Below the pieces are notes generated by a model. That model had not been told where the DNA came from. It saw nothing but the letters and a program-made list of their open reading frames with translations, and made no database searches. Positions 9,898-27,134 of a stretch of 58,592 nucleotides of DNA are shown piece after piece. This stretch comes from a virus (lineage: Duplodnaviria; Caudoviricetes), in the IMG/VR virus record IMGVR_UViG_3300041809_003506, positions 1 to 58,592 of that record. One strand, 5' to 3'. The translations under genes and the position numbers were made by a program. Positions within the stretch are counted from its first letter, which is position 1. Every line of letters begins with the position of its first letter.

Positions 9898-9935
9898 GGC
9901 GGCCTATTCTCTGCTTCGTCGTCCAAGGACCGCAC

Positions 9936-10442
9936 TTAGAAGTCGGCGCAGACCGCCATGAAGTTGATCTGATCGGTGGATGTCAGGTTGGTGGCGTAGG
10001 TCGCCTTCAAGGTGTCGCCGTTTGTCAGATAAAAATACGGATTGCCGTCGCTATCGACCGGCAGCCCCGGCCAGTTGGTCGACGACATCAGGTTGAGCGG
10101 CGTCCCGTAGGTCGAGGCGCCGCCGCTCAACGGGATCGTGACGGCAGCCATCGGGACCGTGGTCGAGCTGTGAATGATCTCGACGGTCAGCAGATGCGTG
10201 GCGCTGTTGTCGTTGCTCTCCGCCATCAGGCCGGTGCATTTCGAACCGTTGCTGCCGCCGGTATAAAGCGTCTTATAGGTGCCGGCGGTATCGGTGCCCT
10301 GAATGAAGGTCTGCACGCCGATATTCGGCGTCTGCACGAAGACCGGCGTCGCGGTGACCGCTGCCAGCACCGGCAGCGGCGCCAGCGCCGCGGCAACAAC
10401 AATAGCAAGCGCCGTGACGGCGCCGATGATTCTGCGCAGCAT
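9936..10442 (-). CDS. Fibre-associated beta-sandwich protein with signal peptide
   Basis: GAGGA SD; MLRRIIGAVTALAIVVAAALAPLPVLA/AVTATPVFVQTP...CADF; the upstream part of the track ORF is spurious. Confidence 0.75.
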   Translation of the reverse strand: MLRRIIGAVTALAIVVAAALAPLPVLAAVTATPVFVQTPNIGVQTFIQGTDTAGTYKTLYTGGSNGSKCTGLMAESNDNSATHLLTVEIIHSSTTVPMAAVTIPLSGGASTYGTPLNLMSSTNWPGLPVDSDGNPYFYLTNGDTLKATYATNLTSTDQINFMAVCADF

Positions 10443-10468
10443 TTTCATGTCCTCGCTGATGGTAATTT

Positions 10469-11161
10469 TCAGATGCCGCCGATGTTGGCTTGCGCAAATG
10501 CCGCGATCAGCGGCACCTGCAGATTGCCGCCGCCCTGCGATAGCCCGTAGCCGACATTGGAGACGGCGCCCGACGATCCGAGATTGACCTGACCGAAGTT
10601 GCAAGCCGTACCACCGCTGTTGACAACGAGCACCTGGTTGGCCGTACCCGTCACGTCGGCGACATTGGCCGTCGAGCTGGTGCAGTTGCCGACGACGGAT
10701 AGCGCCGCCGACTGACGGAATTTCGCGTTGCTGACGGCATTGGCGCCGATGGCGGTCACGCCGCCATTCGTGATCGTCACGTCGCCGCTGATCGTCTGAC
10801 AAGAGGGCGCGCCGGATTGCCCGATCGGAATTTGCGCGCTGGTGCAAACGGCAATGGTGGCAGGCGCGCCCCCGACGCCGCCGCCGATGACGAAGGCGTT
10901 TTGCGCCAACAGTGCGGACGATGCGATAGAGCCCGTGGTGAGAAAATACGGAATGCCGCCAGACGTGCCCGAGCTCGGCCAGCTTATCGAATTGATACTC
11001 TTGCAAGTGAGCCCATGCTCGGCTGGCGACCAGGTGCAATCGCCGATCATCCACATGCGCTGATTGGCGCGCTCGCCCGGCATCAGGAATTGCGCGTGCG
11101 CGGCGACGATGCTGCCGCACAGCCCGAACAGGACCGCAGCGATGCGAAGTGCGCGCGTCAT
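10469..11161 (-). CDS. Tail-fibre-like protein with signal peptide
   Basis: TGATG coupling; MTRALRIAAVLFGLCGSIVAAHA/QF; SGDVTI shaft motif. Confidence 0.75.
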   Translation of the reverse strand: MTRALRIAAVLFGLCGSIVAAHAQFLMPGERANQRMWMIGDCTWSPAEHGLTCKSINSISWPSSGTSGGIPYFLTTGSIASSALLAQNAFVIGGGVGGAPATIAVCTSAQIPIGQSGAPSCQTISGDVTITNGGVTAIGANAVSNAKFRQSAALSVVGNCTSSTANVADVTGTANQVLVVNSGGTACNFGQVNLGSSGAVSNVGYGLSQGGGNLQVPLIAAFAQANIGGI

Positions 11162-11613
11162 CACATGCCCCCGAGATCGCGATGCAGCGCGACGAAACAT
11201 TCAGGACATGAGACCGAAAGCGATCCGCCCGACAGATTCGACGTGATCGGTGCACTGACGGTCACCGGCGATGCTCCGAAATATGGCTTCCATACCAGCG
11301 TCGAGGTGTTGAGCGTGCCGATCTCGACCCAATTCGTGCCATCCGGCGTAACGGAGAGCACCCACGGATTGCTGGTCGTGTTCCACCAGCACTCGCCGGC
11401 GAACGCCGCGCCATTATCATTGGCCGGCGCCGAGTTGCCGCTGTTGCAGCTACCGATCGAAAGAAATGCCGCGTTGAGATATGTTGCCAGGCTCGACATC
11501 GGCAACGGCGAGCCGGGCACCGGCGACACGGTCGCCTGCGACGCGAGCGCAGGCGAAATCATAACGCCAAGCGCAAACCAGATCCCGGCAACGATCGCTT
11601 TGAAAGAGCGCAT
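11161..11613 (-). CDS. Short tail-fibre anchor-domain protein with signal peptide
   Basis: MRSFKAIVAGIWFALGVMISPALA/SQ...NSGNSAP...WWNT...DGTNW. Confidence 0.75.
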   Translation of the reverse strand: MRSFKAIVAGIWFALGVMISPALASQATVSPVPGSPLPMSSLATYLNAAFLSIGSCNSGNSAPANDNGAAFAGECWWNTTSNPWVLSVTPDGTNWVEIGTLNTSTLVWKPYFGASPVTVSAPITSNLSGGSLSVSCPECFVALHRDLGGM

Positions 11614-11619
11614 CAGCAA

Positions 11620-13320
11620 TTACCCGACCATCTGCAGTGGCGCGCCGTCGTCGTTCGCCGGCTCCAGCGCGCTCATGTATTCTATGAGCATCATTGAACT
11701 CTGCGTACCCGTGGTGAATCCGCCGAGCCAGGTGCCGGTGCCGGTTCCGTTCGTCTTCAAGTAGACGCTGTACTGCGTCGCGCTCGTCGTGTTCGGCGCG
11801 TCGAGACCGTCGAGCGCGGCAGACGCTCCCGCGTTTATCGAACCGCCGGTATAGGTGGCTGCGATATTTCCAAACAGATTTGACGGTCCAGAACTGGCGT
11901 TGCTCCGCGCGAGCTGCGCTACGGCTTCTGTGCCGACGTTAGTTCCGGTATATAGAAATCCCAGTACCTGGGCATTCACGAGATTCGCGGCCGACGTCGG
12001 CGTTATGCTCAGCACCGTGCCTGTGATCTGAAACGTGGAGCTGGTCGTGCTGGTCCCTGTTACGTTCACGCCGTAAACGATCTGCACCACGTCTCCCGGC
12101 TTCTTGATGCCGGGGCCGAACATTTGCACATAGCTCGGCGACGCCCAGCCGGTGCCCGACGTCCAGATCGCCTCGACGTAGCCGACGATGCGGATTGCCT
12201 TGCCGCTCAGGCTCGCAATCGAGGTCTGGATGGTACCCGCCGCCGTGCCGCCGGTAGTGCCAGATCCGGTATTCTGCAGCACTGCCTCGTTGAGCTGATA
12301 GATTTGCGTCGGCGTGGATTGATTGCTCAGGCCGAGCAGGATCGAGGTGCAGGCGCCGGCGCTTTCCGTCTGGCAGACCGCCGTGACCCACAGGCGGCAC
12401 AGCACCGCCGTGGTGCAGCCCATGTTGTCGGTCGAGCCGAGCGTCATGCTCAGGGCCGCTGTCAGCACGCCGGGAATGACCGCAGACGTGCTGTTGTTTC
12501 CAGTTTGGCTGCGGAAGCTGGTCAGGATCGGATTGGTCGACGAGGCGTTGGAGCCGTTGACACCGACCAATGCGACCGTGAGCTGGTTGCTCGCGCTCGA
12601 TCCGAGCAGGCTGCCGTTGATCGGAGATCCGAAGCCGGTCGCCGACGCTGCCAGAGCCGAGGAGCCGAGGCTGAGCCCGACTGACGACAGTGGCGCTCCC
12701 GTCGCGCGCATATAGACGACGACCTGCACATTGGTCGCGGTCAGCGCCATTACCAAAGCATAGTCGCCGGCCGCCGTCGTGATGTTGTTGCCGCCATTCG
12801 GCAGGCCAAGCGGCGTCCCTTGCGTCAAGGTCAGCGCGCCCTGGAACGTCACCAGCTTGAGCGAGCCCGGCACCGCATCGTTATTGGCGAGCTGCGTGAT
12901 CGTCGTCGTGCCGCTGACGGTAACCGACGATTGCGGCACCGACCACAGATCGGTGGTCGACGCCGAGGCAATGGTCTGCTGCTCGCCGCCGCCGATCTGC
13001 ATCGCGATCAGATGATTAGTCGCGTCGACATACCAAAGTGCGTTCCAGTCGGTACCGTCATATTGGCTGACGATGCTCGTCGACGTGTTCCACCACAGCA
13101 TTCCGGTCGATGCCGGCGACGGCGCCGAGCCGCCGCTGTAGACCGTGAGGATCGAGCCGGTGCAGGCATTGATATCGTTGACCAGCGTCAGGCCGGAGAC
13201 CGTGCCGGTCGTCGGCATTACGCACGAATTCTGCGAGGCGCCGGCGATGAACGGCGCGGCCAGCGCCGCCAGCAAAAGCGCGCAGCCGAACAGCGGCGCC
13301 AGGGCGCGTCTGAGCATCAT
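11620..13320 (-). CDS. Tail fibre protein with signal peptide
   Basis: MMLRRALAPLFGCALLLAALAAPFIAGA/SQ...SGGSAP...WWNT; IASASTTDL and ITTAAGD fibre motifs. Confidence 0.8.
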   Translation of the reverse strand: MMLRRALAPLFGCALLLAALAAPFIAGASQNSCVMPTTGTVSGLTLVNDINACTGSILTVYSGGSAPSPASTGMLWWNTSTSIVSQYDGTDWNALWYVDATNHLIAMQIGGGEQQTIASASTTDLWSVPQSSVTVSGTTTITQLANNDAVPGSLKLVTFQGALTLTQGTPLGLPNGGNNITTAAGDYALVMALTATNVQVVVYMRATGAPLSSVGLSLGSSALAASATGFGSPINGSLLGSSASNQLTVALVGVNGSNASSTNPILTSFRSQTGNNSTSAVIPGVLTAALSMTLGSTDNMGCTTAVLCRLWVTAVCQTESAGACTSILLGLSNQSTPTQIYQLNEAVLQNTGSGTTGGTAAGTIQTSIASLSGKAIRIVGYVEAIWTSGTGWASPSYVQMFGPGIKKPGDVVQIVYGVNVTGTSTTSSTFQITGTVLSITPTSAANLVNAQVLGFLYTGTNVGTEAVAQLARSNASSGPSNLFGNIAATYTGGSINAGASAALDGLDAPNTTSATQYSVYLKTNGTGTGTWLGGFTTGTQSSMMLIEYMSALEPANDDGAPLQMVG

Positions 13321-13344
13321 GGAACGATCCTTATCGGGAGAACG

Positions 13345-13653
13345 TCAGGCCGCGGGCTTGGCGGCGACGGCCTTGGCGATGGTCGCGCTGGTCTTGCCGA
13401 TCATGTCGAGCCAGAGGTCGACATATTTGTCGGCGAACTGTTCGATCTCCTTCACCATCGGCGGCGTCGGCGAAAATTCCGGCGCCAGATCGTCGACCAT
13501 TTCCTTGCTCGCCGCCTTGACCGCCGCGAGCATGGCCTGCGCGCGGTCGGGCGGCAGCGTCGCGGCGAGCTGGCCGGCAACGGCGGTCACCACCGCCTCG
13601 AGCGCAATCAGCCGCCCGGCAAATTCCTTGCCGCTCAAAGTCGGTCCAGGCAA
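13345..13653 (-). CDS. Hypothetical protein (102 aa)
   Basis: AGGAGG SD; co-oriented with the late operon. Confidence 0.6.
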   Translation of the reverse strand: MPGPTLSGKEFAGRLIALEAVVTAVAGQLAATLPPDRAQAMLAAVKAASKEMVDDLAPEFSPTPPMVKEIEQFADKYVDLWLDMIGKTSATIAKAVAAKPAA

Positions 13654-13678
13654 TGACGCCTCCTAATGTGCGGCCGTC

Positions 13679-14149
13679 TCAGCGCGGGCGCTTGCCGATA
13701 GTGATGATCATGAAGTCGCGGTTGCCTGGCACCACGGTGACCGCGTAACGATCGCTGAGTGCGGCCTTCAGCGCCGACGCGACCTTCCCGGCATCCGCAA
13801 GCTGTTTGTCGCCTCGCGCCGCCGTCAGCTCGATGCCATAGCCGAGCGGATAAAACGATCGGTCAAGCGCGCTGCTGACTTTCGCATCCTCGAACGCGTC
13901 ATCGAGATCCTGGGCAAGATCGGTCGCTGCCGCGTCGGCCGAGACGATATCGACCTTGTAGCGCAGACCCTTCACCGCGGCCGCGAATGCCGCCTTCTGC
14001 ACATCGGTAAGATCGGGCCACGCATGCTTGCTTACGGCGATCGAGTGCGTGACCTGCTCGACGTGCTTCGGCGCATAGTGGACCGCACCCGCACTGACAG
14101 CCACAGCAACAACGGCGGCTATCGAGCCATGAATGATGTGATCGCGCAT
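13679..14149 (-). CDS. N-terminally anchored or exported hypothetical protein
   Basis: MRDHIIHGSIAAVVAVAVSAGAVHYA hydrophobic leader. Confidence 0.6.
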   Translation of the reverse strand: MRDHIIHGSIAAVVAVAVSAGAVHYAPKHVEQVTHSIAVSKHAWPDLTDVQKAAFAAAVKGLRYKVDIVSADAAATDLAQDLDDAFEDAKVSSALDRSFYPLGYGIELTAARGDKQLADAGKVASALKAALSDRYAVTVVPGNRDFMIITIGKRPR

Positions 14150-14150
14150 T

Positions 14151-17100
14151 TCAAAACCCTTCAACGGTGAGTGTGAGCTGACGCGCGACCTTGCTGCCGC
14201 CGTTCAAGATTTCGAAGGTGACGGCCGACAGCGACAGCGCCGTGACGATCAGATCATCGCCGGCTTGCGCGTTGACGATGCCCCACGAGATTGCTGGCAA
14301 GTCCCCTGGCCCGGCACCACCATTGAACGGCGACGCCGTGCCGATTAACGGCGCAGTCGAAGTAACGCCGGATTGCCCGAATGTTACGCTGGTCGTCGCC
14401 GACGACGACGTGGTCAGCGGATATTGATCGATGCGCGGCGGGATCGTCGCCGTGATCTTAAAGACCGTGTCGTAGCCGATCGCAGCCGGATCGACCGACT
14501 CCAGAAAGAACGACCAATCGAGGAACCGCGCCTGATAGGCGCCCGGCGAGAACTTCTGCCAGTCGCCCCACGCCGGATCGGAAGCAGCGTAGAGATCGGG
14601 ATAGGCGTAAAGATCGCCAAGCGCATAGAGGTCGCCGCCGAGTGCGGTCGCCGTCTGGATCAGCGGATAGCCTTCGACGAAGGCGGTGTTGGCGGCGCCG
14701 AGAATATCCGCGGTGCCGAGAAAGTCGGCAAGCGCCAGCACGTTCTGCGATGCCGGCACGCCGGTGAGTTGATAAGCGACCGACACCGACACGTTGGCGA
14801 CATAGCCGATGTCGAGATAGGTATCGGAGGGATAGAACGTACCCGATCCGGAATCGCCGCCAATGTTGAGAATGTCCGGCGTATTGAGAAAATCGGTGAT
14901 CGCCAGGACGTTGGCGCGCGACCCGGTGCGGATCGCGTTGTCGGTCGCATCGTAGCCGACCGCGCCGGTAAAAGTCCCCGGCCAGTACGCCGCTGCCACG
15001 TCGATCGACAGAATGACGTTCTGCGTGAGAACGGCGCCTGAGATCGTGATGCTCTGCGGCGCTTCGGAGTAGACCTGCAGTCCGGATGCCGGTTGTGCGT
15101 AGGCCGACACCCAATAGGTGCCGTTGCCGGGAACGGTGAACGGCGATTGCGCGTCGTCGTCGAGAATGACCGCCGATTGCCAGGTGGCACCGACCCTGAC
15201 CTCATAGGTCGGATTGCGGAAGTCGCTCACCTTGTCCCAGATGAGCTGATTGAAGCCGATATTGGCGTTGTAGTTGGAGCGCAGGTTGGTGACGTTCGCC
15301 AGCGGCGAGGACAGTGCCGCCCCGGTGATCAGGTAGGGATAAGCCGCACAGTCGGCGAGGTTTTGTGTCCCTCCTTGATAGATGTTGAAGGATTGGAATT
15401 TCAGATAGACGACCGAGCCGATGCGGCTCTGATCGTAAGGGAAGGCGAAAATGTTGCTGTCGAGCCGGGCAAACGGCGTGCCGGCCGGATGATCGACGAT
15501 CTCGCTCTCGGTGCCGTAAGCGCCGCGCACCAGGTAGGTAAGATTATAGGCATTCGGCCCGGTCAGCGTCGCCGTTTCATAGGCGATGACTTCGCTGCCG
15601 ACCAAGCAACGCGTGTTGAGCGAGAGCACATCGAGCGTCGTACCGGATGATAGCGTGCCGGCGCTTTCCGCGAGCGAAACCGCCAGCGTGTCGGCCTGGT
15701 CGATGGTCTGTCCGGTCGGATTGATATCGACCGGCGGCAGGTCAGCGGTAGTGACGCCCATGCGCGCTGGACCGATGATCTCCCCTATCTGGGTATATTT
15801 CTCGCCATCGTAACTCGCCCAAACGTTACAGCCGCCCCAGAGACTTGTATTTTCTCCCGAGATGGCGCCGGCGATCATCAGGCCGCCGCCCGAGATCATC
15901 GTGGCGGCGAGTTCGTCGGTCGGCTCGAAGATGATCGGGGCGTTGATCGGTCCCGGATCGGCGTTGTAATTCAGCGCCGGCTGCAAGCTCGGCTGCGTGC
16001 CATATTGCGGCGCCGATACGGTGCCGAGATATTCCTCGGCGGTGATAGTGAGCGAGAAGTCCTGGTTCTCGTAAATCTCGATGATGCGGACCGGCTGCTC
16101 GAGCAGCCCCTGGCCTTCGTCGGTCACCGTGACCAGCGCCATCAGCTCAAGGATGAGCATGAAGTGGCGGCCGCAGGTCCACTGGAAAGTGCGCGCGATC
16201 TGCTGCCGGATCAGCGACAGCGTTGCTGATTGCTGTGCCGCCGCGGCCAGACAGAAGAAATGCAGTTGCTTGATGTCGCTCGGTCGCGTGCGGTTGAACG
16301 AGGTGATCGACGCCTCGTCCTTTACCTCAATGTCGACCGGGTTATAGGTGTTGTTCCTGTCGAGGTATTCGACCTTGATGTCGTTGAGCATCTGATCGCG
16401 CGACTTGCGCACACAGATCAGCGGCGAATTGTTGACGGCCAGTCCCGTGCCGAGCGTGCCCTGATTGGGCAGGAAGTCGTCGAGCGTGAAGGCGTAGAGC
16501 GGCGAGGTGTTCGGAACGTAGGACGCGGTCGCTGCGTAATTATAGGTGATCAATACGCCGGCGTTGATATCGGCCGGGCTGAAATAATAGACGCCGCCCT
16601 GCTCGTAGTATTGCCCCTGCGCCGGCGTTCCCGATGTCGAATAGCCGGTCGGCGCGTAGGTCGAAACCTTCTGTAGCGGGGCGCCGCTCAGATAAGTGAC
16701 ACCACCATCGCCGGCAAAGGTCGCATAGAAGCTGACCTTGATGCTCGGGAAATAAAGCGGCGTATTGTTGCTGTCGACGCCTTCCTGATCCTGCGGGACG
16801 TCGTAGGTTTCGGTGATGGCCTGGATCTGCCCGGCGGTAACGGACTTGTCGCCGTAGGGAACAACCGTGAACTCGCCGTCCTGCCAGCACGGCGCCGCAT
16901 TGGTGGCTGCGGTCAGATCATTGACAAAGGCAGAAGCCGCGATCGGCGAAGCGATCACCGGCGAGACGCCAAAGCCGAGCGCGATGCAATAGCTCTGCCA
17001 ATTTGCCAGCGAGCCGAGACGCGCGCTCGGGAAGCCGAGGCCGTAATACTCATTAGTCAGGAATGCCGTCAGCGCGATCGAGGGATCGCCATCAGGCTGG

Positions 17101-17672
17101 CCGGGAATAACATTGCTCTGGTTGGTCGACCCGACCTGAAAGGTGAAGTTGGGAATCGCGGTCGACGAGCCGAGCGGAAAGTTACCGAATGCACTGTAAC
17201 AGATGCCGCGATAGTTGAGCGCGTGCGACGAGTCCGTGTCGAGCATATAGCCCCACGGATCCTGCTCGTAATCGCCGAGATAATCCTCCGCCTGATAGCT
17301 GTAGTTGCCGAGCGTGAGAATGGTCGATGCCGGCAGATCGGTGTCCGGCAGCGCATTGCCGGTGCCGTTGATCCACATGCCGGAGATCGAGGCAACCGGG
17401 CCTTCGCAGATGCCGACGATGAAGGTAACGAAATAGATATAATTGCCGGAATTACCCTTGCCCGATCCGGCACTAAACAGGCCGCCTTTGCCGCCAGTCG
17501 GCGCGTTCTGATAGTTGAAGTTGGTATAGTCGATTAGATTGCCGGCGAGCCGATTGGCGCCGCCCAGCATCAACGCGATCGGGACGCCCTGCAGCGAGGT
17601 GTTGATGCGCAGCGACGTCGCCGGCGGCGAAACAGGGCTTGCACCGAAGAGACCAGTGAGAAACCGAGCCAC
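14151..17672 (-). CDS. Central tail tip / host-specificity protein (Phage-tail_3, J-like)
   Basis: 1173 aa; GICEGPV, ALNYRG, VEYLDRNNTYN, YLVRGAYGT, YLKFQSFNIY motifs; follows NlpC/P60. Confidence 0.85.
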   Translation of the reverse strand: MARFLTGLFGASPVSPPATSLRINTSLQGVPIALMLGGANRLAGNLIDYTNFNYQNAPTGGKGGLFSAGSGKGNSGNYIYFVTFIVGICEGPVASISGMWINGTGNALPDTDLPASTILTLGNYSYQAEDYLGDYEQDPWGYMLDTDSSHALNYRGICYSAFGNFPLGSSTAIPNFTFQVGSTNQSNVIPGQPDGDPSIALTAFLTNEYYGLGFPSARLGSLANWQSYCIALGFGVSPVIASPIAASAFVNDLTAATNAAPCWQDGEFTVVPYGDKSVTAGQIQAITETYDVPQDQEGVDSNNTPLYFPSIKVSFYATFAGDGGVTYLSGAPLQKVSTYAPTGYSTSGTPAQGQYYEQGGVYYFSPADINAGVLITYNYAATASYVPNTSPLYAFTLDDFLPNQGTLGTGLAVNNSPLICVRKSRDQMLNDIKVEYLDRNNTYNPVDIEVKDEASITSFNRTRPSDIKQLHFFCLAAAAQQSATLSLIRQQIARTFQWTCGRHFMLILELMALVTVTDEGQGLLEQPVRIIEIYENQDFSLTITAEEYLGTVSAPQYGTQPSLQPALNYNADPGPINAPIIFEPTDELAATMISGGGLMIAGAISGENTSLWGGCNVWASYDGEKYTQIGEIIGPARMGVTTADLPPVDINPTGQTIDQADTLAVSLAESAGTLSSGTTLDVLSLNTRCLVGSEVIAYETATLTGPNAYNLTYLVRGAYGTESEIVDHPAGTPFARLDSNIFAFPYDQSRIGSVVYLKFQSFNIYQGGTQNLADCAAYPYLITGAALSSPLANVTNLRSNYNANIGFNQLIWDKVSDFRNPTYEVRVGATWQSAVILDDDAQSPFTVPGNGTYWVSAYAQPASGLQVYSEAPQSITISGAVLTQNVILSIDVAAAYWPGTFTGAVGYDATDNAIRTGSRANVLAITDFLNTPDILNIGGDSGSGTFYPSDTYLDIGYVANVSVSVAYQLTGVPASQNVLALADFLGTADILGAANTAFVEGYPLIQTATALGGDLYALGDLYAYPDLYAASDPAWGDWQKFSPGAYQARFLDWSFFLESVDPAAIGYDTVFKITATIPPRIDQYPLTTSSSATTSVTFGQSGVTSTAPLIGTASPFNGGAGPGDLPAISWGIVNAQAGDDLIVTALSLSAVTFEILNGGSKVARQLTLTVEGF

Positions 17673-17673
17673 A

Positions 17674-18123
17674 TCAGCGCTGCCATTTGCTAAAGAATTT
17701 TACGTCGAGGATCGGAATGCCGAGATGCACGGAGGTACCGAAGCCGCGGCGCACACAGCGGGCGCCGAAATGAGCGTGAATGATCGACGGCCAGCCCGGC
17801 TTGACGATCAATGCAGCGTGAGAAAAACACTTTCCAGCCTTATACAAAACCACATCGCCGTGCTTGACATGCTCGAGCGGAATCTCGTGGGCAAATTTCC
17901 GCACCCAGCCGAGGTAACGCTCTTCCGATTGGTGAAGAAAAAACTGCGGTGAATAATAGCCGATCTCAAAAGGCTCGATCAGCCCGGCTTCCAGAAACAC
18001 GCATTTCAGAAGCGTGGCGCAATCAACTCCCGCGCCCTTGACCTCGCCATGATCGTGAAACGGCGTCCGCAGCCACGTCCGCGCGATCGCATCGACGCGG
18101 TCGCGTTCGGCTTCCTCGGTCAT
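17674..18123 (-). CDS. NlpC/P60 tail-associated peptidase
   Basis: ARTWLRTPFHDHG...GVDCA...GDVVLY...SHAAL...IIHA. Confidence 0.9.
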   Translation of the reverse strand: MTEEAERDRVDAIARTWLRTPFHDHGEVKGAGVDCATLLKCVFLEAGLIEPFEIGYYSPQFFLHQSEERYLGWVRKFAHEIPLEHVKHGDVVLYKAGKCFSHAALIVKPGWPSIIHAHFGARCVRRGFGTSVHLGIPILDVKFFSKWQR

Positions 18124-19088
18124 CCTTGCGACTCTGGCGGCGGAATCCAGGGCTGCCCGCCGTAATTAGGTTGATTGTTGAACAGACCGCATGTCGCGTA
18201 GAGCTTGTTGCAGCCCGGATAGACCGTGAATGGGTCGCCGGCGGCGATTGCAAACGGAAAGGGATTGAGCAGCGATAACGTTTGATTGCCATCCCAGCCA
18301 GAGATCGTGCGCTGGAATCCGGCGTTCAAGCCGCCGGTGAAGACAATGCGACCGAGTAGGTAGGTTCCTGATCCCAGAGGCACCGGGAAGTCGGTGCCGA
18401 CGATAACCGCTTGTGTCGAGCTGGAGCCAGCCGTTCCATTGATGGCAAAGCTCGCCGCATTCATGTTGCCGGATGCGTTGCACCCGACGTCAAACAGGGT
18501 ATGCCGGCACTGCGCTTCATAGAAGTGCAGCGGCATCTGGATGGTGAGCAGCGACCGATAATCGTTGACCGTGAGCACGGCCACGGCGTTCGTGGTGTCG
18601 ACCTCCGCGACAGTGCCGGCGAAGATGGTTCGGCATCCGACCGGCGAAGCGCCACCGGGCGGCATCGGCCACGTCGGCAATGCCGAGAAAAAGGCCTCGT
18701 CGACCTGAAAGTCCGCGGCGTCGAGAGCTCCGCCAGAGGCCGCCTGCAGCCAGGGCACCGAGCCGATGGTGTCGGGAAACGCCGCTCCGGTCACCAAATC
18801 GAACGGCCGCGGCATCAGCACCAGCACCCAGGTATCGGTATCGGTGCCGACTTTCAGATGCGCTTGGGTCTTGCTCTGTTTCTGATCGACCTTGATGCCG
18901 CCGGACGGATACCTATAGCCGTTGACCAACGTGCTTGTGGAATTCCCGACGATGTCGAAGTCGGCATCAGTGAAGCGGATTCGTCCGCCCTGAAACATCG
19001 TGATCGTGTAGAGCCTTGCAACATAGAATGGCGCGGCCGTCTCGACGATGTTATTGAACAGCGCGATCAGTGCCGGAGTTGTCGTCAT
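18120..19088 (-). CDS. Baseplate hub protein (DUF2163/BR0599-like)
   Basis: RFTDADFD, CRHTLFDVGC, GDPFTVYPGCNK...C...FNNQPNYGGQPWIP. Confidence 0.88.
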   Translation of the reverse strand: MTTTPALIALFNNIVETAAPFYVARLYTITMFQGGRIRFTDADFDIVGNSTSTLVNGYRYPSGGIKVDQKQSKTQAHLKVGTDTDTWVLVLMPRPFDLVTGAAFPDTIGSVPWLQAASGGALDAADFQVDEAFFSALPTWPMPPGGASPVGCRTIFAGTVAEVDTTNAVAVLTVNDYRSLLTIQMPLHFYEAQCRHTLFDVGCNASGNMNAASFAINGTAGSSSTQAVIVGTDFPVPLGSGTYLLGRIVFTGGLNAGFQRTISGWDGNQTLSLLNPFPFAIAAGDPFTVYPGCNKLYATCGLFNNQPNYGGQPWIPPPESQG

Positions 19089-19091
19089 GGC

Positions 19092-19703
19092 TCACGGCAA
19101 TTTTTCCGTCGAGAATTTCAGGCTTTTCACTTCAGCCAGCGTCGACATGAAGTTGGAGAATTCGATCGAGTCATCGTCGAAACGACACGGCCAGTAGAAA
19201 AACCCGGTCCACGTCAACGCCGCGCCGGATGCCGGTGCGCTCGAGAAATTCACCACGCCGTAAGGCGAGATCGATGCCGGCACTACAGGCGACCCGGCGA
19301 CGTTAATCGTCGGCGTGCCGTTGACCAGAAACACCGGCTCGGTAAAACCGCCGAGCGTGCGCACCAACTGAAACGCCGTGGTGACGCCGTCGCCGGTACC
19401 GAATTCCTGATTGGCAGCCGCGTTATCGTTCGGATCGCTATAGGCCCAGAGCTGCCCCGGCCCCTGCACCGAGTTGATGAAGCCGAGCAGCGCCTGCCAT
19501 TCCAAAGCGACAAGACCGCCGAGCGCGATCGTCGCGGAATTCAGCGCATTGATCGTCAGCTCATAACTGTAGGTCGGATAGCTGTAGAGCGGCACGCGGG
19601 TGCGTTTGCCCGACAGCGCATCCTGCTTGACGGTATTCCAATTCACCGGCCGTTTGACCGGCCAGCCCAGGGCCGACAGCGTCGGGAAAACGGGAAGTGC
19701 CAT
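19092..19703 (-). CDS. Distal tail protein (DUF2460-like)
   Basis: SGKRTR, FGTGDGVTTAFQLVR, WTGFFYWPCRFDDD. Confidence 0.85.
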   Translation of the reverse strand: MALPVFPTLSALGWPVKRPVNWNTVKQDALSGKRTRVPLYSYPTYSYELTINALNSATIALGGLVALEWQALLGFINSVQGPGQLWAYSDPNDNAAANQEFGTGDGVTTAFQLVRTLGGFTEPVFLVNGTPTINVAGSPVVPASISPYGVVNFSSAPASGAALTWTGFFYWPCRFDDDSIEFSNFMSTLAEVKSLKFSTEKLP

Positions 19704-19706
19704 CGA

Positions 19707-21761
19707 TCATGCCAAGCTCGGATTGAGTGGGCCAGCACCGGAGAGCGCCTTCATCAGCTGTAGCGTGCCGCCACGCGTGAGCCAGCTCTGCACCGACGGG
19801 CCGTCCCACGCCATGATGTTCCAGTTGTGCGTCACGCCACCGCCGCTTGAACCGCCAGGCCCGGCATAGGGCGTCTGAACGTTCGCCGGCGTGATCGTCT
19901 CGCCGGCGTGGATCATCGCCAAGCCGCCGCCGAGCACATAGCCCCCAACGTCGAGCGCAGCGATGCCCAACAGCGAGAACAACGATTTGAAGCCACTCAG
20001 CAGGCCGCCAGCGCCGCCTGCAGCCGCCGCAGCACCGCCCCCAGCGGCCACCGCTGTTTCACCACTAAGCGCTACAGTGTTGGCGGCAACCGCCGCAGTC
20101 AGCGCCGTGACGGCCGTTGTGTTGGCCGTCTGCGCCGCGGCCTGGCCGCCGCCCAGCAAACCCCCGAGCAGGGACGTCGGACCGCCGCCCGTCAGCGAGG
20201 TCAGACCGACCGCCGCCTTCTCGATCGCCAGCTTCTCGAGATATTTGATCCCATCGAGGACCAAATCCTGGATGATCCTCTTCGTCGCGGTCGCCCAATT
20301 TTCTGTGCCGTCCAACAAGCCCTTTAATTGCGAGTCAAATGCCGACGTAAACGGAGTCAATGCCGCCTGCCATTCCTTGGCGTCTTTTTCTGCGGCCGCG
20401 ATGACGATCTTGTCGTGATCTGTTCGCCATTTCTGATCGAGCAGGAGCTTTTGATCGATGAGCTTCTGATATTGCGCCGCCGTCAATCCGGCGATCTGAG
20501 ATTCCGTATTGAGCGCCGCGAGCTCCTCAGTGTGACGGCGATTGAGCGCCTGCAGAAGAAGCTGCGTTTCCTGATCATAAGTGATCTGATGCAACTTGAC
20601 TTCGCCGGCGAGAATTTCCTGTGTCTGCTTGTAGGCGGCGTCATAGAGCTTGATCTGGGTCTGGAATTGCTCCATCTGCGCCGTTATGGCAGACCTATCG
20701 GGAGCCGCTGATGATGGCGCTTGCGGCTTTGCTTCACCGGGCTCACCAGCAAGGATTTTCTGCAGTTCGGTCGCCGCCTGCCGGGCGATGGCGTTGATCT
20801 TGTCGTCGCCCTCTTTCTGGATCTGTTCGACCCGCGCCAGCCCGGCCGCCCGATCAGAAGCGATGGCGCCCCAATTGAGCGTGAAGACATCCTTGGCAAT
20901 CGTGCCGAGATTGGCCAGCGCCTGGCCGAGTTCCGCCGCGCCAGTGGCGAGCGCGATCATCTCCCGTTGCCAGACCGTATGAGTTTGAATGGCAACGTTG
21001 ACACTACCGATCAGTTCGGTGGTGCCAGTGACGGCGCGCGTCAACGCCGGCGCTAACTCCGCAACTAACGCGCCGGCGGCGCCGGTGACGGCACCCTTCA
21101 AACCAACCAGCGCGCGCTCGAGCGCGCTCAAGCTATCGACAGCAGTCTTCGAAAGGACCGCGCCGGTATTATCGGCCACACCACGGAGCTTTTCGAGCCC
21201 GTCGCTGCCCTGATCGAGCACCGGGATCATCTGCGCGCCGGCGCGGCCAAGGAGCTCAATCGCGATCGCCGTCTTGTTTGGGCCATCGCCGAATTTGGCG
21301 AAGGCGTCGGCGATCTTGTTGAGCTGCTGATCAAGCGAAAGACTGCTCAGTTCTTTCGCCGACAGACCGAGTGCTTTCAGCGCCTGATAGGCCGGTCCGG
21401 CGCCCGATTGCGCCTTCTGCAGATTGACCTGCAGCCGCTCCATGGCGAGCGATAGCCCTTCGGCATCGCCGCCGGTCGACTTGGCGATGAAGCCGAGCTC
21501 CTGCACGCTCTTGGTTGATGTACCAAGGATTGCGGACGATCGCTCGACCTGTTCGCCGAGCTCGGCCATTTGCCCGACAAATGCGATAATCTTTTCGCTC
21601 GAAAATGCAACGCCGAAAACCTCGAGCAGCGACTTCGCGCCCGCGGTCACCTTGTCGGTTGACTCCTTGACCGACTCGATTGCCGACTTGGCGTCCTCGA
21701 CGCCCTTGATCAGCGCACCAATCGAGGCGGAGAATTGCACGCGGACGGTATCGGCCATCAA
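19707..21761 (-). CDS. Tape measure protein
   Basis: 684 aa, Ala-rich and helical; LLGRAGAQMIPVL; C-terminal DVGGYV...AMIHAGETI. Confidence 0.88.
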   Translation of the reverse strand: MMADTVRVQFSASIGALIKGVEDAKSAIESVKESTDKVTAGAKSLLEVFGVAFSSEKIIAFVGQMAELGEQVERSSAILGTSTKSVQELGFIAKSTGGDAEGLSLAMERLQVNLQKAQSGAGPAYQALKALGLSAKELSSLSLDQQLNKIADAFAKFGDGPNKTAIAIELLGRAGAQMIPVLDQGSDGLEKLRGVADNTGAVLSKTAVDSLSALERALVGLKGAVTGAAGALVAELAPALTRAVTGTTELIGSVNVAIQTHTVWQREMIALATGAAELGQALANLGTIAKDVFTLNWGAIASDRAAGLARVEQIQKEGDDKINAIARQAATELQKILAGEPGEAKPQAPSSAAPDRSAITAQMEQFQTQIKLYDAAYKQTQEILAGEVKLHQITYDQETQLLLQALNRRHTEELAALNTESQIAGLTAAQYQKLIDQKLLLDQKWRTDHDKIVIAAAEKDAKEWQAALTPFTSAFDSQLKGLLDGTENWATATKRIIQDLVLDGIKYLEKLAIEKAAVGLTSLTGGGPTSLLGGLLGGGQAAAQTANTTAVTALTAAVAANTVALSGETAVAAGGGAAAAAGGAGGLLSGFKSLFSLLGIAALDVGGYVLGGGLAMIHAGETITPANVQTPYAGPGGSSGGGVTHNWNIMAWDGPSVQSWLTRGGTLQLMKALSGAGPLNPSLA

Positions 21762-22049
21762 TCAGCCTCGCATGATCCCGTCGGGATAGCGCATCTTGAT
21801 TTCCGCGATGGTCGGCGGCCGCCGCTTGTCGTCAGGGGATGTATCGGGCGGGGGTTTGTAGCCGATGAAGCCAGCAACCAGGTCGCGCAGCGGGGGATGC
21901 TTGCGCCAGTATTTGAGCAATGCCATCACGTCGTCGAAGGTCATTTCCTCGATCTGCGCCGGCGTCCATCCGGTATTGGAAATCAGCCGCCCGAACAGCT
22001 CGTCCCAGAACTCTATCCAGTTGCCTCCGCCCGGGGCGCCGTAGGGTTT
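21762..22049 (-). CDS. Tail assembly chaperone, second (-1 frameshift) segment
   Basis: The -1 frame opens exactly at A AAC CCT and reads KPYGAPGGGNWIEFWDELFGRLISNTGWTPAQIEEMTF...YWRKHPP. Confidence 0.7.
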   Translation of the reverse strand, partial: KPYGAPGGGNWIEFWDELFGRLISNTGWTPAQIEEMTFDDVMALLKYWRKHPPLRDLVAGFIGYKPPPDTSPDDKRRPPTIAEIKMRYPDGIMRG

Positions 22050-22303
22050 TCAGCCGCAGCCTTCGTGAAGCCGGCGAACTCAAGGATCGCCGAGACGGCG
22101 GCGCCGATCTCGGTAACCTCGGCCTCGATCGCCATCGGGTCGATCGGCTTTGGATCGGCGCGCTTGAGCGCAATCGCCAGGATCGAGAACGAGATATCGT
22201 CCTTGTCCCCGGAGAACGCCTTGGTGACCTCGCGCATTTGCCCGAGGTTGAGCTTGGGGACGGAATAATCGACGCCGCCCAGCGTCACTGTGATGCTGGC
22301 CAT
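22013..22303 (-). CDS. Tail assembly chaperone (G-like)
   Basis: MASITVTLGGVDYSVPKLNLGQ; lies between the tail tube and tape measure genes. Confidence 0.75.
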   Translation of the reverse strand: MASITVTLGGVDYSVPKLNLGQMREVTKAFSGDKDDISFSILAIALKRADPKPIDPMAIEAEVTEIGAAVSAILEFAGFTKAAAENPTAPRAEATG

Positions 22304-22305
22304 GA

Positions 22306-23046
22306 TCAGAACGTATCCGGGAAGGACCACTCGCCCATATTGCCGGCGGCGTTGACGTAGCACTCGCCCTCGAAGTCCGGCAGCGTGAAATCCTCGAGCT
22401 TGGTGCCGAAGGAAAGCTTCGCCATCACCACATTGTAGAGCTGCAGCGTCATGTTGCCGCCTGTGGTCGGATCGACGGTATAGAGATTGGCGCCGAAGCT
22501 CACGGTCGGACCGATCAGCGGATTGGGAATCGTGATCGTCTGCCCGGTCGAGGCAACCGTGTAATTGTACGAGATCAACACCTTCGCCGAGGCGTCGCCG
22601 GAATAGAACGTATAAACGCCGGCCGAGACGCTGTATTGCCCGACGGCTGAAACCGAAGCAACCCGCGTCAGCGGCAATCCGGTTGCCGCATAGATGACGC
22701 CCTGATCTTGCACCCAAGTCGTATGATTTGCGGTCTGGATGGTGTAGGTCGAGCTCGCCGGAACTGTGCCCGCTTCGCCGATCGCCGTGGTGTTTTGACC
22801 GGCGACGGCTGCGATGCCGTAATAGAGCGAAGCAAACATCAGCCCGCTGATGCGGGCCGACTTCGCTTTCAGCGTCGTCTTGATGGTTCCTGCCCCGACG
22901 GCGAGCGCCCGGCGGTTCTGCCCAAAGAGCGACTTGAGCGTGCCGGCCTCATCGAAGGTTGCTTCTTGGATGAGACCGAAATTCACTGGCGTCGGCACTG
23001 CTCCCGCAGGAGTGCCGATCAAAACGCCGGAGCCGAATGAGAACAT
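22306..23046 (-). CDS. Major tail (tube) protein
   Basis: AGGAGG SD; MFSFGSG...KSLFGQ...KLEDFTLPDFE; synteny. Confidence 0.8.
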   Translation of the reverse strand: MFSFGSGVLIGTPAGAVPTPVNFGLIQEATFDEAGTLKSLFGQNRRALAVGAGTIKTTLKAKSARISGLMFASLYYGIAAVAGQNTTAIGEAGTVPASSTYTIQTANHTTWVQDQGVIYAATGLPLTRVASVSAVGQYSVSAGVYTFYSGDASAKVLISYNYTVASTGQTITIPNPLIGPTVSFGANLYTVDPTTGGNMTLQLYNVVMAKLSFGTKLEDFTLPDFEGECYVNAAGNMGEWSFPDTF

Positions 23047-23099
23047 GGTCGAGCCCTCCTGAAAGAGCCTGGGTTGCTGGTGTTAAAGAAAGAAAGTTC

Positions 23100-23288
23100 T
23101 CAGCCGGCCTTATCGAGCCGCACCTTGAGATCGTCGAGCGCCTTCTGCAGCACGTTCCAGCACTCGGTATTCCGAGATATCGCCGAGTTGACGAAGTTCG
23201 CGGCGACCCATTGGCTGACGAGCTGATCGTATTTGCCAGCCGGCGCAGCGGCGGCATTGGCTGCAGTCGCGGTTGTCTCTTCGACCAT
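23100..23288 (-). CDS. Small hypothetical protein
   Basis: MVEETTA...; 62 aa, in the operon. Confidence 0.55.
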   Translation of the reverse strand: MVEETTATAANAAAAPAGKYDQLVSQWVAANFVNSAISRNTECWNVLQKALDDLKVRLDKAG

Positions 23289-23302
23289 GATATTTGATCC
23301 CT

Positions 23303-23752
23303 CTATGGCAGGATAATTTCGATCGGCACGGCGCACAGGCTCTTGCCGGTAGTGTCGCCGGCGGCACGGACGCCTTCGGCTTTCAGCATGCAGGAATAGA
23401 CCAGGCCGCCGAGCGTAAAGCGCCCGACCATCGGATTATCGGGTGCCAACGCAGCCTCGATCGCTTCCATGAAGTAATTGACCTGCGTCGCCGGGATCAG
23501 ATTTTCGTCCGTGCCGACGTCGGTGTAGAGGATCGCCCACACCAGCATCTTGCGGATCGGCGGAACGGAGGGCGACGGCCGCTCCCATTCGTCCTTGTAT
23601 TCGACCAGAAACAACGCGGGGCGTTCGTTGCCGGGAACATTCTCAGGATCGCGCAGCCGGCGGCCGATTGCCACCAGCGCCTTACCCTGCGCGGTGATAC
23701 CTTCGAGCTGCGCCACCAGCGCAGTCATGATCTGCTCGCGGGTCGCGCCCAT
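23303..23752 (-). CDS. Tail terminator / completion protein
   Basis: REQIM...PALFL...TLGGLVYSC...VPIEIILP; synteny. Confidence 0.7.
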   Translation of the reverse strand: MGATREQIMTALVAQLEGITAQGKALVAIGRRLRDPENVPGNERPALFLVEYKDEWERPSPSVPPIRKMLVWAILYTDVGTDENLIPATQVNYFMEAIEAALAPDNPMVGRFTLGGLVYSCMLKAEGVRAAGDTTGKSLCAVPIEIILP

Positions 23753-24255
23753 CAGTCATTCCCGGCTTCCGACTGATCGATTGCCCCAGATGCAGCCATG
23801 GTCCCGGCCGCGGTCAAGCGCGCCTGAATATCGTCTTTCTGTTCCTGCAGCGTCGAATTGAGCACCGAATGCGGTTTGATCTGCGCGCCGGGATTGTGGA
23901 CGAGCCCGGCAAAGACTTCGCCGCTCGAGCCGAGGAAATGCAGCGCCTTGACATTCTTCGGCGCGATATCTCTTGGCGGTGTATGGCCGCCCCATTCCAG
24001 AACGCCCGCCCGAGGATCCTTGGTGAAGACCTGGCCGCTCACGCTCTTGGGGTTGACCTTCACCTTCGACTGGAAGCTTTCCAGATATTCTCCGGTGATG
24101 ACCTTGACGACATCGCCGCCGGCCTTTTCCTTGACCGCGCCGAACAGTAATTCCGTCAGGAGGGTCGCTTCGCCGACCAGCGCTTGCTTGACGACATCAG
24201 GAAGCTGATCAAGCTTGCCAGACAGATCCCCGGTATTGACCGTGACGCGGAGCAT
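23752..24255 (-). CDS. Neck / tail-completion protein (HK97 gp10-like)
   Basis: LEWGG...KALHF...VHNPG motif; synteny. Confidence 0.7.
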   Translation of the reverse strand: MLRVTVNTGDLSGKLDQLPDVVKQALVGEATLLTELLFGAVKEKAGGDVVKVITGEYLESFQSKVKVNPKSVSGQVFTKDPRAGVLEWGGHTPPRDIAPKNVKALHFLGSSGEVFAGLVHNPGAQIKPHSVLNSTLQEQKDDIQARLTAAGTMAASGAIDQSEAGND

Positions 24256-24668
24256 CAGACGCCCTCCGCTTTGCCCGCAATAGCGCCCGCAACAATGCGA
24301 GTGCCAGGATCGACTTCAGTGATATTGAAAAGCTCCGTTCCAGGAACGAATGAGTCATCGACCATCGTCCCCGGAATGATCCGATCGTTCTTGCGCAGCG
24401 GCAACGGAAAGCGCTGCTCGGCAAGATCGGCCTGCAGCACGATGAACTCGCGCAAGCCCTCGCTGATTGCCCCAGACTTCGCACCCGATCCGATCGGCGC
24501 CGTCGGCTGATAGGCGCGGAACACCGCCAGCACGACAGCGTCCGTCGTTGCGACGTTCGGCGCCTGGCCGGAAACGCGGCGGAACAGTACCGCTTGCCCG
24601 GTGCGCGCCAGCATGCGCCGATAGGCCGCGACCGCGTTGCGGTCGGGAAGCGCCGGCGCGATGGTCAC
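24255..24668 (-). CDS. Head closure / joining protein
   Basis: Size and synteny downstream of the connector. Confidence 0.55.
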   Translation of the reverse strand: MTIAPALPDRNAVAAYRRMLARTGQAVLFRRVSGQAPNVATTDAVVLAVFRAYQPTAPIGSGAKSGAISEGLREFIVLQADLAEQRFPLPLRKNDRIIPGTMVDDSFVPGTELFNITEVDPGTRIVAGAIAGKAEGV

Positions 24669-25138
24669 CGCGCCACGCCGTTGACGGCGACCAAGGTCTG
24701 CCCGGCATAGGTGCCGGTCGAAACCACGCAGGCCTGCAAACGATCTCCGATCGGTCCGTTGAGCACCGTGTTATTCGACAAGGCAAGATTGCTCGGCGCC
24801 GTCGGCGTGGTGACGGAATTCAACCCCGACAGATTGACCAGCTCGACGCCGGATGAAGTCGTGAATTCGATATTGGCAATATCGAAGAAGCTCTGCCCCT
24901 GATCGACGCTCGTCTGGATGAAGACGTTGGTCTGCGTTCCGCCGGAACCGTAGGCAAAGCGCACCTGCAGGGTGACGGCATCGAGGCCTTGAAGGTTTAT
25001 AACCGGAACCGGCGAGCATTGCGTCCCGGCCGCGGCAACGATGAAGTTGCCGAGGTTAAAGGGACCGGGATTGTCCATCGCCAGCGCCGGCGCGAGCAAC
25101 GCGCAGAGCGCGAAAAGCAAAACTCCGATGCGGCGCAT
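24665..25138 (-). CDS. Virion-associated beta protein with signal peptide
   Basis: MRRIGVLLFALCALLAPALA/MDNPGP; FAYGSGG...IQTSVDQG..FFDIA. Confidence 0.7.
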   Translation of the reverse strand: MRRIGVLLFALCALLAPALAMDNPGPFNLGNFIVAAAGTQCSPVPVINLQGLDAVTLQVRFAYGSGGTQTNVFIQTSVDQGQSFFDIANIEFTTSSGVELVNLSGLNSVTTPTAPSNLALSNNTVLNGPIGDRLQACVVSTGTYAGQTLVAVNGVAR

Positions 25139-25142
25139 GTTA

Positions 25143-26201: not shown

Positions 26202-26220
26202 GGTCGACCTTCCGGCTCAT

Positions 26221-26697
26221 TCAGGACGTCAGCTTCGTCCAGCGCACTAGCAGTTTGCCGCCGGTCGTCGCCGTGCCGCCGGTATTGTTGATGGTGTTAG
26301 CGCCGGTGATGGTGAATTGGCTGGTGAGATCGGAGATATCGGTCACCGCCGTACCGGCGCCGATGAAATACAGCACTTCGTCGAGCTCGTCGCCGACTTT
26401 GATCCCGGTCGCCGTAAAATTGCCCGCCGCGCCGCCAGCAAGCAAAATGTGTTTGGCGAAGCCGCCGCCGCCGATACCCGATCCGGCCACCACCGGCTGC
26501 ACCGCCGATGCCGCAGCTGCACCCTCGGCTGCCGTAGCAAAGGCCGATGATGCCTGAGTTGCCGCGGAGCCGAGCCCGAGAGCAGTCCGGGCCGCCCCCG
26601 CATTCCCTGCAAAAATATCGGCGACAGATGCGTCACTCGGCGTTTCGCCGCTGGCGCTGGTCTCACTGACAACGAGCTTAGTGTTGACATCGACCAT
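26221..26697 (-). CDS. Head-fibre or decoration-like protein
   Basis: AARTALGLGSAAT fibre motif; Gly/Ala/Thr rich. Confidence 0.6.
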   Translation of the reverse strand: MVDVNTKLVVSETSASGETPSDASVADIFAGNAGAARTALGLGSAATQASSAFATAAEGAAAASAVQPVVAGSGIGGGGFAKHILLAGGAAGNFTATGIKVGDELDEVLYFIGAGTAVTDISDLTSQFTITGANTINNTGGTATTGGKLLVRWTKLTS

Positions 26698-26710
26698 CTT
26701 AGCGGTCCCC

Positions 26711-27127: not shown

Positions 27128-27134
27128 GACCGGC

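Follow-up and report, generated by a model that had tools for sequence, protein, structure and literature searches.

On the accepted view, tailed phages assemble their particles entirely within the cytoplasm. Among phage proteins that use the host Sec pathway, Sec-dependent and signal-anchor-release endolysins are not virion fibres, and the coat proteins of filamentous phages, which are virion parts with cleaved leaders, assemble at the membrane. Exported products are also encoded beside host-recognition genes, as is the case for Lom and Bor of lambda, Llp of T5 and Cor of phi80 and N15; these are lipoproteins or outer-membrane proteins that are unrelated to virion proteins and are often separately transcribed. 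To our knowledge, no tailed-phage fibre or decoration protein is known to be exported by Sec. No description of Sec leaders on such proteins was found in the literature collection searched, and in the excerpted text of the phiCbK paper the matches were confined to lysis proteins. Here we describe a 58.6-kb IMG/VR record, IMGVR_UViG_3300041809_003506 (58,592 nucleotides, analysed as a whole and hereafter called the window), a provirus of an RcGTA/phiJL001-like siphovirus in which eight genes of the structural module begin with a predicted Sec leader.

The account that we favour, with a probability of roughly 0.65, is that Sec leaders were added at the old start codon of proteins that would now fold oxidatively in the periplasm while keeping their docking end. 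Most phages that have these proteins would make them without a leader and assemble them in the cytoplasm. In at least four structural-module families (MDNPG, AVTATP, SQ/AQ and F..PG.R) a leader would have been joined in frame where the ancestral gene had its start codon, and in the window's lineage the proteins would be sent to the periplasm, where newly gained cysteine pairs would form disulfides. The position of the cut would give the exported protein the free N-terminus of its cytoplasmic counterpart, and the processed proteins would join the particle once lysis brings the two compartments together. Sequence comparison itself shows that homologues begin at the junction, that leader forms group in clades, that cysteines covary with the leader and that neighbouring genes agree in state. 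Cleavage, export and disulfide formation, and gain as the prevailing direction of change, are our interpretation of these patterns, and docking to the virion is the least certain part of it. As far as can be told, the sequence-level pattern itself is solid and has so far gone unreported.

Leaders in the structural module of the provirus

The siphovirus morphogenesis region of the provirus is complete and lies on the minus strand, and inside it are all four of the open reading frames (ORFs) for which a first-pass annotation, made from the letters alone, had listed leaders. P0001 (24665-25138; 157 amino acids (aa), a jelly-roll protein) has a 20-residue leader (25079-25138) that ends in ALA and is followed by MDNPGP. 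In P0002 (11620-13320; 566 aa, fibre-like) the leader is 28 residues long (13237-13320) and ends in AGA before SQNSC; in P0003 (11161-11613; 150 aa, a fibre N-terminal domain only) it has 24 residues (11542-11613) and ends in ALA before SQATV; and in P0004 (9936-10448; 170 aa, a jelly-roll domain with one cysteine pair), whose ATG is preceded by a GAGGA motif, it has 29 residues (10362-10448) and ends in VLA before AVTATPVF. The translations thus bear out the mature ends given by that annotation, namely SQ twice, AVTATPVF, and MDNPGP with a Met at +1. Each of these leaders is basic at its start (Lys or Arg), has no charge in its hydrophobic core and ends with small residues in positions -3 and -1.

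Four further leader genes, beyond those listed, lie on the same strand. Two encode fibre-like proteins: one of 230 aa (10469-11161), whose start overlaps the P0003 stop codon and whose 23-residue leader precedes QFLMPGER, and one of 465 aa (8500-9897), with a 24-residue leader before QFISPGER and 12 cysteines in its mature part. The third (7754-8503; 249 aa, GTG start) has an 18-residue leader-like N-terminus and is the last gene of the leader-bearing cluster, and the fourth (26711-27127; 138 aa, four cysteines) has a 21-residue leader and lies upstream of the connector genes. A Sec-type build, that is, a positively charged n-region, an uncharged core of about 10-15 residues and small residues at -3 and -1, is present in all eight genes, and the leaders are without an L-x-[GAS]-C lipobox; the P0001 leader contains one cysteine, preceded by Leu at -1, which homologues do not conserve. 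The leaders of P0001, P0002 and P0004 contain RR, but the rest of the twin-arginine translocation (Tat) motif (S/T-R-R-x-F-L-K) is absent. We infer that these are real leaders of the Sec/signal-peptidase-I type, with cleavage and export predicted to follow. Their DNA bears no relation from gene to gene, shared matches being GC-rich and at most 13 nucleotides (nt) long, in agreement with the earlier remark that the leaders have no obvious sequence in common.

Leaders were called by our own strict rule together with direct reading of the translations. The rule often sets the cut 2-9 residues early, and the cuts quoted here are those at which homologues begin. Under this rule 8 of 29 curated structural-module genes of the window are leader-like, and the background is 6 of 1,025 same-strand neighbour ORFs (0.6%) at 74 related loci with a leaderless gene. 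A looser rule for whole records was dropped because it was noisy and missed genes under a spurious 439-aa ORF. Could the leaders then be artefacts, upstream extensions that are simply open frames in GC-rich DNA or miscalled starts? DNA of high GC content does yield many spurious long ORFs, and the noise of the looser rule points the same way, but signal-peptide properties are kept despite sequence divergence in 56, 141 and about 247 homologues, the leaders covary with cysteine pairs and with the state of the neighbouring genes (see below), and the strict-rule background is low, so that we consider such an artefact scarcely credible.

Homologues with and without a leader

Relatives of the MDNPG protein were taken as the best 120 of 242, and 117 of these, with the window protein included as P0127, were aligned after P0158 (frameshift-like), P0180 (a fragment) and P0189 (aberrant) had been dropped. 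A leader is present in 56 of the 117 and absent from 61, and the leaderless proteins begin at the +1 column or no more than four residues from it, mostly with M-D/N-N-P-G. The expectation that homologues would start at the predicted cut was therefore upheld in this family. Among viral loci the MDNPG gene is leaderless in 74 of 80, and by our count it follows an adaptor match in 50 of the 80.

In the AVTATP family, 118 of the best 120 of 258 matches have a leader and two do not. The view that the leader is nearly universal in this family, as these best 120 matches would imply, was misleading: a scan of viral contigs reached a distant leaderless majority, with 23 leader-bearing and 24 leaderless genes among 47 full-length loci. 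Met directly precedes the +1 column in most of the 24, which start M|AVTATP, M|TVTATP, M|AVTPNS and similar, one of them (L195) with M-AANTAP; both of the leaderless starts named in the first-pass annotation, M-AVTATP and M-AANTAP, were thus recovered. The leaderless genes sit among tail-fibre genes. A scan of genome contigs gave 12 loci, all matched from residue 20 onward.

The SQ-type N-domain behaves differently from what that annotation had stated, namely that its leaderless homologues commonly start M-SQ or M-AQ. An all-against-all HMMER comparison placed the domain in 494 representative clusters. A leader is found in 144 of the best 150. Of the remaining six, three are fragments, one is probably a truncated call and two are odd chimeras at the N-terminus, so that no clean leaderless form is among them. 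In a search with the P0002 N-domain, 103 of 107 proteins are leader-bearing (nine of them of a longer anchor-plus-linker type), two are clean leaderless M|SQ proteins (P0430 and P0498) and two are ambiguous; a hidden Markov model of the domain run over the 2.9 Mb of DNA collected added a leaderless M|AQ form in record G009. Leaderless starts of the M-SQ and M-AQ kind accordingly exist, but they are rare.

Two variants of this N-terminus were also seen. Nine P0002 N-domain relatives (P0434, P0443, P0446, P0453-P0455, P0470, P0471 and P0475) have a longer N-terminus than the others, in which a hydrophobic anchor leads into a linker (..NILDVGREY..) that is conserved over some 30 residues, and an A.A|(A/S)QG cut-like site comes after it, ahead of the domain. 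In P0280 and P0291 a cold-shock-protein-like start (..KVKFFNETKG..) replaces the leader and the first part of the fibre N-domain; these may be chimeric assemblies or real fusions.

The F..PG.R family, to which the proteins of 10469-11161 and 8500-9897 belong, occurs in both states: immediately downstream of AVTATP homologues, its member begins with M|F..PG.R at leaderless loci and reads A.A|QF..PG.R at leader loci. We regard these two proteins, P0002 and P0003 as tail-fibre-like because of similarity to an annotated fibre protein and because of their position after the megatron gene; their presence in the virion is a prediction. The annotated protein is the tail fiber protein of Bradyrhizobium phage ppBdUSDA122-1, which the P0003 N-domain matches with an E-value of 1e-12. 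In a tblastn search of 50,697 phage records this was the one phage matched by P0002 and P0003, and P0001 and P0004 had no match. Only two fibre-region proteins of ppBdUSDA122-1 match, the tail fiber protein and its neighbour, and both are leader-bearing. This phage is released spontaneously as siphovirus particles by Bradyrhizobium diazoefficiens USDA 122 (PMC10127595), a report whose accessible text makes no mention of signal peptides or proteomics. Phage tail collar domains (PF07484) are present in 7 of the 107 homologues of the P0002 N-domain.

What explains the Met at +1 of P0001? Met-aminopeptidase removes the initiator Met only before small residues. With a small second residue (M-A, M-S) the ancestor would lose its Met and the exported form would start with A or S, and with a large second residue (M-D, M-N) the ancestor would keep its Met and the exported form would have Met at +1, so that the Met of P0001 would follow from having the same mature N-terminus by either route. 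The second residue is large in 53 of the 61 leaderless MDNPG proteins, and Met stands at +1 in 22 of the 56 leader forms, that of the window included, the others having another hydrophobic residue there. By comparison, 21 of 26 leaderless AVTATP proteins have Met followed by A, T, S or P and would mature to A/T/S/P-V-T, the mature end starts with A in 131 of 141 leader forms, and no member of that family has Met at +1. Leaderless and leader-bearing forms are thus predicted to share the same end, which agrees with the earlier proposal that the native N-terminus was preserved, and since both routes yield the same mature end we infer that the free N-terminus is under constraint.

The Met at +1 in those 22 MDNPG proteins, the window's own among them, would also suit dual initiation, in which export of the long form is accompanied by synthesis of a shorter, cytoplasmic one from the internal Met. 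That alternative seems to us very improbable: no Shine-Dalgarno-like motif lies ahead of the internal ATG of P0001, Met is missing from the +1 column in 34 of the 56 MDNPG leader forms and throughout the AVTATP and SQ families, and the aminopeptidase rule already accounts for the Met where it occurs. The first two observations also speak for functional leaders.

Support for an altered folding environment comes from the cysteines. At least two are present in 59 of 59 leader rows of the AVTATP family versus 0 of 26 leaderless rows, and in the alignment of 120 sequences they fall at column pair 118+230 in 98 of 118 leader forms and at 136+211 in 17 of 118. In the MDNPG family one of two leader-specific cysteine pairs is found in 46 of 56 leader forms versus 0 of 61 leaderless ones, and the cysteine count is even in 55 of 56 versus 34 of 61. 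The N-terminal fibre domain of P0002 holds a cysteine pair, which the two M|SQ proteins (P0430 and P0498) do not have. The eight leader proteins of the window contain 4, 2, 6, 4, 6, 2, 12 and 2 cysteines, in every case an even and non-zero number. Because export to an oxidising periplasm predicts covariation of cysteines with the leader, we consider the prediction of export and disulfide folding in that compartment to be well supported at the level of sequence.

Direction of change and linkage between neighbouring genes

Mature-domain trees were built with 117 rows (MDNPG), 85 rows (AVTATP) and 197 rows, all of them unrooted. The minimum number of leader-state changes is four, five and six, respectively, of which three, three and four are forced by starred branches. 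Leader-bearing forms are minority branches of the mostly leaderless MDNPG and AVTATP phage families. In the 197-row tree, 139 rows are leaderless; 56 of the 58 leader rows fall in one starred clade of 64 rows and the other 133 rows are almost all leaderless. In the AVTATP tree, 21 leaderless rows and one leader row form a deep clade on long branches, opposite a shallower clade of 52 leader rows with five nested leaderless rows.

For the main clades of the two jelly-roll families we favour gain as the main direction, since the leaderless forms are more numerous and more divergent (the 139 of 197 rows and the deep 21-row clade), since they hold the standard slots in tail and connector modules that assemble in the cytoplasm, and since a Met at +1, kept in 22 of 56 MDNPG leader forms, reads more easily as a relic start codon. 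The same three points count against the opposite direction, in which the leader would be ancestral and leaderless forms would have arisen by repeated loss at the cleavage site. That direction draws on the lack of a root, on the prevalence of the leader in the SQ-type domain (144 of 150 and 103 of 107) and on several leaderless rows nested within leader clades, and for the jelly-roll families we judge it improbable. For the SQ-type domain, in which leaderless forms are rare, change may have gone in either direction.

A second pattern concerns the neighbours. Next to the AVTATP homologue, on its downstream side, a leader-like gene is present at 23 of 23 leader loci versus 1 of 23 leaderless loci, and the leader call at the sole leaderless-locus exception (L167) proved false on inspection; L145, L144 and L148, which are off-clade cases, are also concordant. 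By the strict rule, 64 of 235 neighbours are leader-like around leader loci (at 21 of 23 loci) versus 8 of 247 around leaderless loci (at 6 of 24), an enrichment with a Fisher p of 1.5e-14, uncorrected for relatedness. Some of the leader-like neighbours match tail-protein PHROGs. Over whole records, few of which are informative, all members carry a leader in G000, in G001 (a relative of the window) and in G040, and all are leaderless in G009 and G051. Judged from adjacent genes, leader state is a trait of gene modules rather than of single genes.

Two suggestions of the first-pass annotation can be assessed from these results, and each stands only in part. That leaders were gained repeatedly agrees with at least three to four state changes in each family and with the position of the leader forms on minority branches, but the trees have no root, some of the changes look like losses and, because adjacent genes switch together, whole-module exchange may explain part of the pattern. 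That leader-bearing versions co-occur within genomes, a point that it raised for checking, is true of adjacent genes and holds only loosely for whole records, several of which (G020, G004, G002 and G025) are discordant; these records rule out a strict genome-wide coupling of the P0001 leader with the fibre leaders. The MDNPG gene is present in only 1 of 33 AVTATP-bearing records.

Several observations weigh against our account of added leaders and a preserved docking end. Unrooted trees cannot formally separate gain from loss, and the leaderless proteins nested in leader clades (P0177/P0181/P0184, P0028/P0059/L144, L148 and L165) are best read as later losses or module replacements. The leader of the SQ-type domain is so nearly universal that it is possibly ancestral there. 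Independent contrasts for the cysteines are too few for sign tests to reach significance: three of three go the same way in the AVTATP family (p 0.25), and in the MDNPG family one goes the same way and two show no difference. Within 10 kb on either side of six leader-bearing MDNPG loci there is no enrichment of leaders (0 of 58 ORFs), and G020, G004, G002 and G025 have a leaderless MDNPG gene, yet leader-like ORFs 12-19 kb downstream of it. Moreover, each family is present in one copy, and if these proteins are needed inside the cell for assembly, export would remove them.

The downstream ORFs of the four discordant records are convincing cases, of 184-1004 aa and on the same strand. It follows from these records that leader-bearing fibre-region proteins are spread more widely than the window's lineage.

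Gene setting and the destination of the exported proteins

The head part of the minus-strand gene order runs from the large terminase through the portal and protease to the major head protein, and it continues with the head-tail adaptor, the neck and tail terminator proteins, a major-tail-like protein, the tape measure and a distal tail set of RcGTA/phiJL001 type (DUF2460, hub, NlpC/P60 and an Rcc01698-like megatron). P0001 comes directly after the adaptor gene (25143-26201), whose stop codon is 4 nt before the ATG of the P0001 leader. P0002, P0003 and P0004 follow the gene for the megatron, a host-specificity tail protein (14151-17672) with which the conserved, leaderless tail module ends. 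The leader genes are packed in an operon-like row with spacers of 4 nt and 6 nt and one 1-nt overlap, and their GC content (0.60-0.65) is like that of the rest of the window. A sigma-70-type scan, which is a weak test, found no promoter-like sites, and terminator-like sites numbered four versus 6.8 expected from shuffles, again a weak test. Scans of the window proteins gave no Pfam or PHROG family for any of the eight leader proteins, and the provirus holds no second copy and no leaderless paralogue of these families.

Two small genes on the same strand separate the megatron gene from the leader-bearing fibre genes. One encodes a 161-aa protein with a single N-terminal hydrophobic anchor (13679-14164), which is conserved in the corresponding position of the related provirus G001 (40% identity) and could be a membrane-anchored helper for exported fibres; the other encodes a 102-aa protein (13345-13653). 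Downstream of the leader-bearing cluster, a 280-aa protein (4655-5497, minus strand) matches endolysin PHROGs over its C-terminal 60 residues and is likely a lysis gene product. The region 27871-30580 (minus strand), flanked by the gene for the major head protein and by the connector genes, carries a radical-SAM-like gene (406 aa) and a 501-aa protein with glycosyltransferase/methyltransferase-like PHROG matches, which is unusual cargo for a head module. Contigs at least 99% alike to positions 7301-27300 of the window occur in further wetland metagenome runs, and metatranscriptome contigs from an RNA-library run fall about evenly over the 20-kb structural region, in 29 of 30 bins, which may reflect either transcription or carry-over of DNA and does not set the leader genes apart from the rest.

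Do the exported proteins still join the virion? We put this at slightly under an even chance. Docking is favoured because late-operon synteny is kept, because the N-terminus is conserved from +1 and because no leaderless paralogue is left. It is also feasible, though unlikely in our view, that the exported proteins have been repurposed and are no longer virion parts, serving instead to block superinfection, mask receptors or change the lysogen surface. In other phages, morons that bear signal peptides and lie beside tail genes do such envelope jobs, and accessory genes commonly sit at the distal end of the tail module, which is where the leader genes cluster. The absence of PHROG and Pfam matches for all eight proteins fits repurposing as well, as do the leader-like ORFs in the fibre regions of phages whose MDNPG gene is leaderless and the fold of the MDNPG domain, which is as close to the exported XepA as to cement proteins (Z 9.2 each). 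On the other side, syntenic slots and the tight spacing of the late operon have been kept, with no promoter-like site and with fewer terminator-like sites than in shuffles (both weak tests); hundreds of clusters share a docking-type N-terminus whose conservation begins at +1; no leaderless paralogue remains for the virion job; the leaders have no lipobox; and phage tail collar domains occur among the P0002 N-domain homologues (the 7 of 107).

Under our preferred account of leader addition, a lineage of temperate tailed phages of soil and wetland Alphaproteobacteria might carry side fibres and accessory jelly-roll proteins that are exported by Sec, are locked by disulfides in the periplasm and arm the cytoplasmically built particles only at lysis, a picture that we offer tentatively and would not yet bet on. 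This would be a two-compartment assembly route undescribed for tailed phages. At least four unrelated structural-module families would have switched together to export, with the mature N-terminus kept and cysteine pairs gained. If the proteins do join the virion, the consequence would be a new assembly logic in which parts facing the environment are folded oxidatively and the particle is armed after lysis; if they do not, they would be a clear case of repeated recruitment of virion proteins into envelope functions. Either way they would offer a clean natural example of a signal peptide added to an existing protein, and a warning for annotation, in which the leader of a fibre gene should not be taken for a miscalled start codon. 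The phage ppBdUSDA122-1 offers a direct system for testing whether such proteins join the virion.

Comparison with known folds and systems

P0001 and P0004 were modelled as jelly rolls behind a helical leader, with predicted local distance difference test (pLDDT) values of 92.7 and 90.0. The MDNPG domain resembles XepA of PBSX (6i56_D, Z 9.2) and YomS of SPbeta (6i5o_A, Z 8.5), which are likewise prophage-encoded beta-sandwich proteins, the XepA entry bearing the word "exported" in its title; they differ in their Gram-positive host, their place in a lysis cassette and their lack of sequence similarity to the MDNPG protein. Equally close is the cement protein Bbp16 of Bordetella phage BPP-1 (3j4u_H; Z 9.2, root-mean-square deviation 2.6 over 106 residues), followed by the Carin1 capsid protein (8cjz_B, Z 8.6) and the cement/decoration protein of epsilon15 (3j40_N, Z 6.8). 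These Z values are within the range common for jelly rolls, and the Bbp16 score is tied with those of unrelated jelly rolls. The Pfam scan of P0001 gave no families at E-values up to 0.1, the Bbp16 profile PF21190 included, and in the Atlas neighbour cluster of the MDNPG protein (template modelling (TM) score 0.57) that profile is found in 29% of members. The cement proteins differ in that the MDNPG gene adjoins the adaptor gene and not a capsid gene, and the Bbp16, Carin1 and epsilon15 proteins, we presume, carry no leader.

The AVTATP domain is only weakly similar to phage cement proteins, to a pentameric capsid protein and to folds like that of tumour necrosis factor (TNF), and Foldseek gave only weak, generic jelly-roll matches. 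For both jelly-roll families the nearest Atlas clusters are viral hypothetical proteins of 131-174 aa. The Atlas structural matches, of 131-153 aa, align from residue 20-22 (MDNPG) or from residue 29, in one case 37 (AVTATP), and therefore cover the mature part only. An hhalign comparison of the two families with each other gave a probability of 91% (E 9e-7) over 79 columns running from the leaders into the early mature domain, from which we draw no common origin.

The closest known counterparts are the leaderless homologues in IMG/VR phage contigs and among metagenome proteins, which have the same domains, gene slots and predicted mature N-terminus; they differ in having neither a leader nor the leader-type cysteine pair, and presumably fold and assemble in the cytoplasm. 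The fibre adhesins of Bdellovibrio (Bd2133, 8ok3/8ond), which are weak fold neighbours, are phage-fibre-like proteins used outside the cytoplasm and, as we understand it, have signal peptides; they differ in being chromosomal and outside any phage tail module. Finally, the moron traits of an own promoter or terminator, deviant composition and lipoprotein or outer-membrane nature are not seen in the leader genes, as far as a weak scan can tell. In contrast to Lom and Bor, Llp and Cor, the proteins predicted to be exported here are homologues of structural-module proteins, have no lipobox and are encoded inside the late operon.

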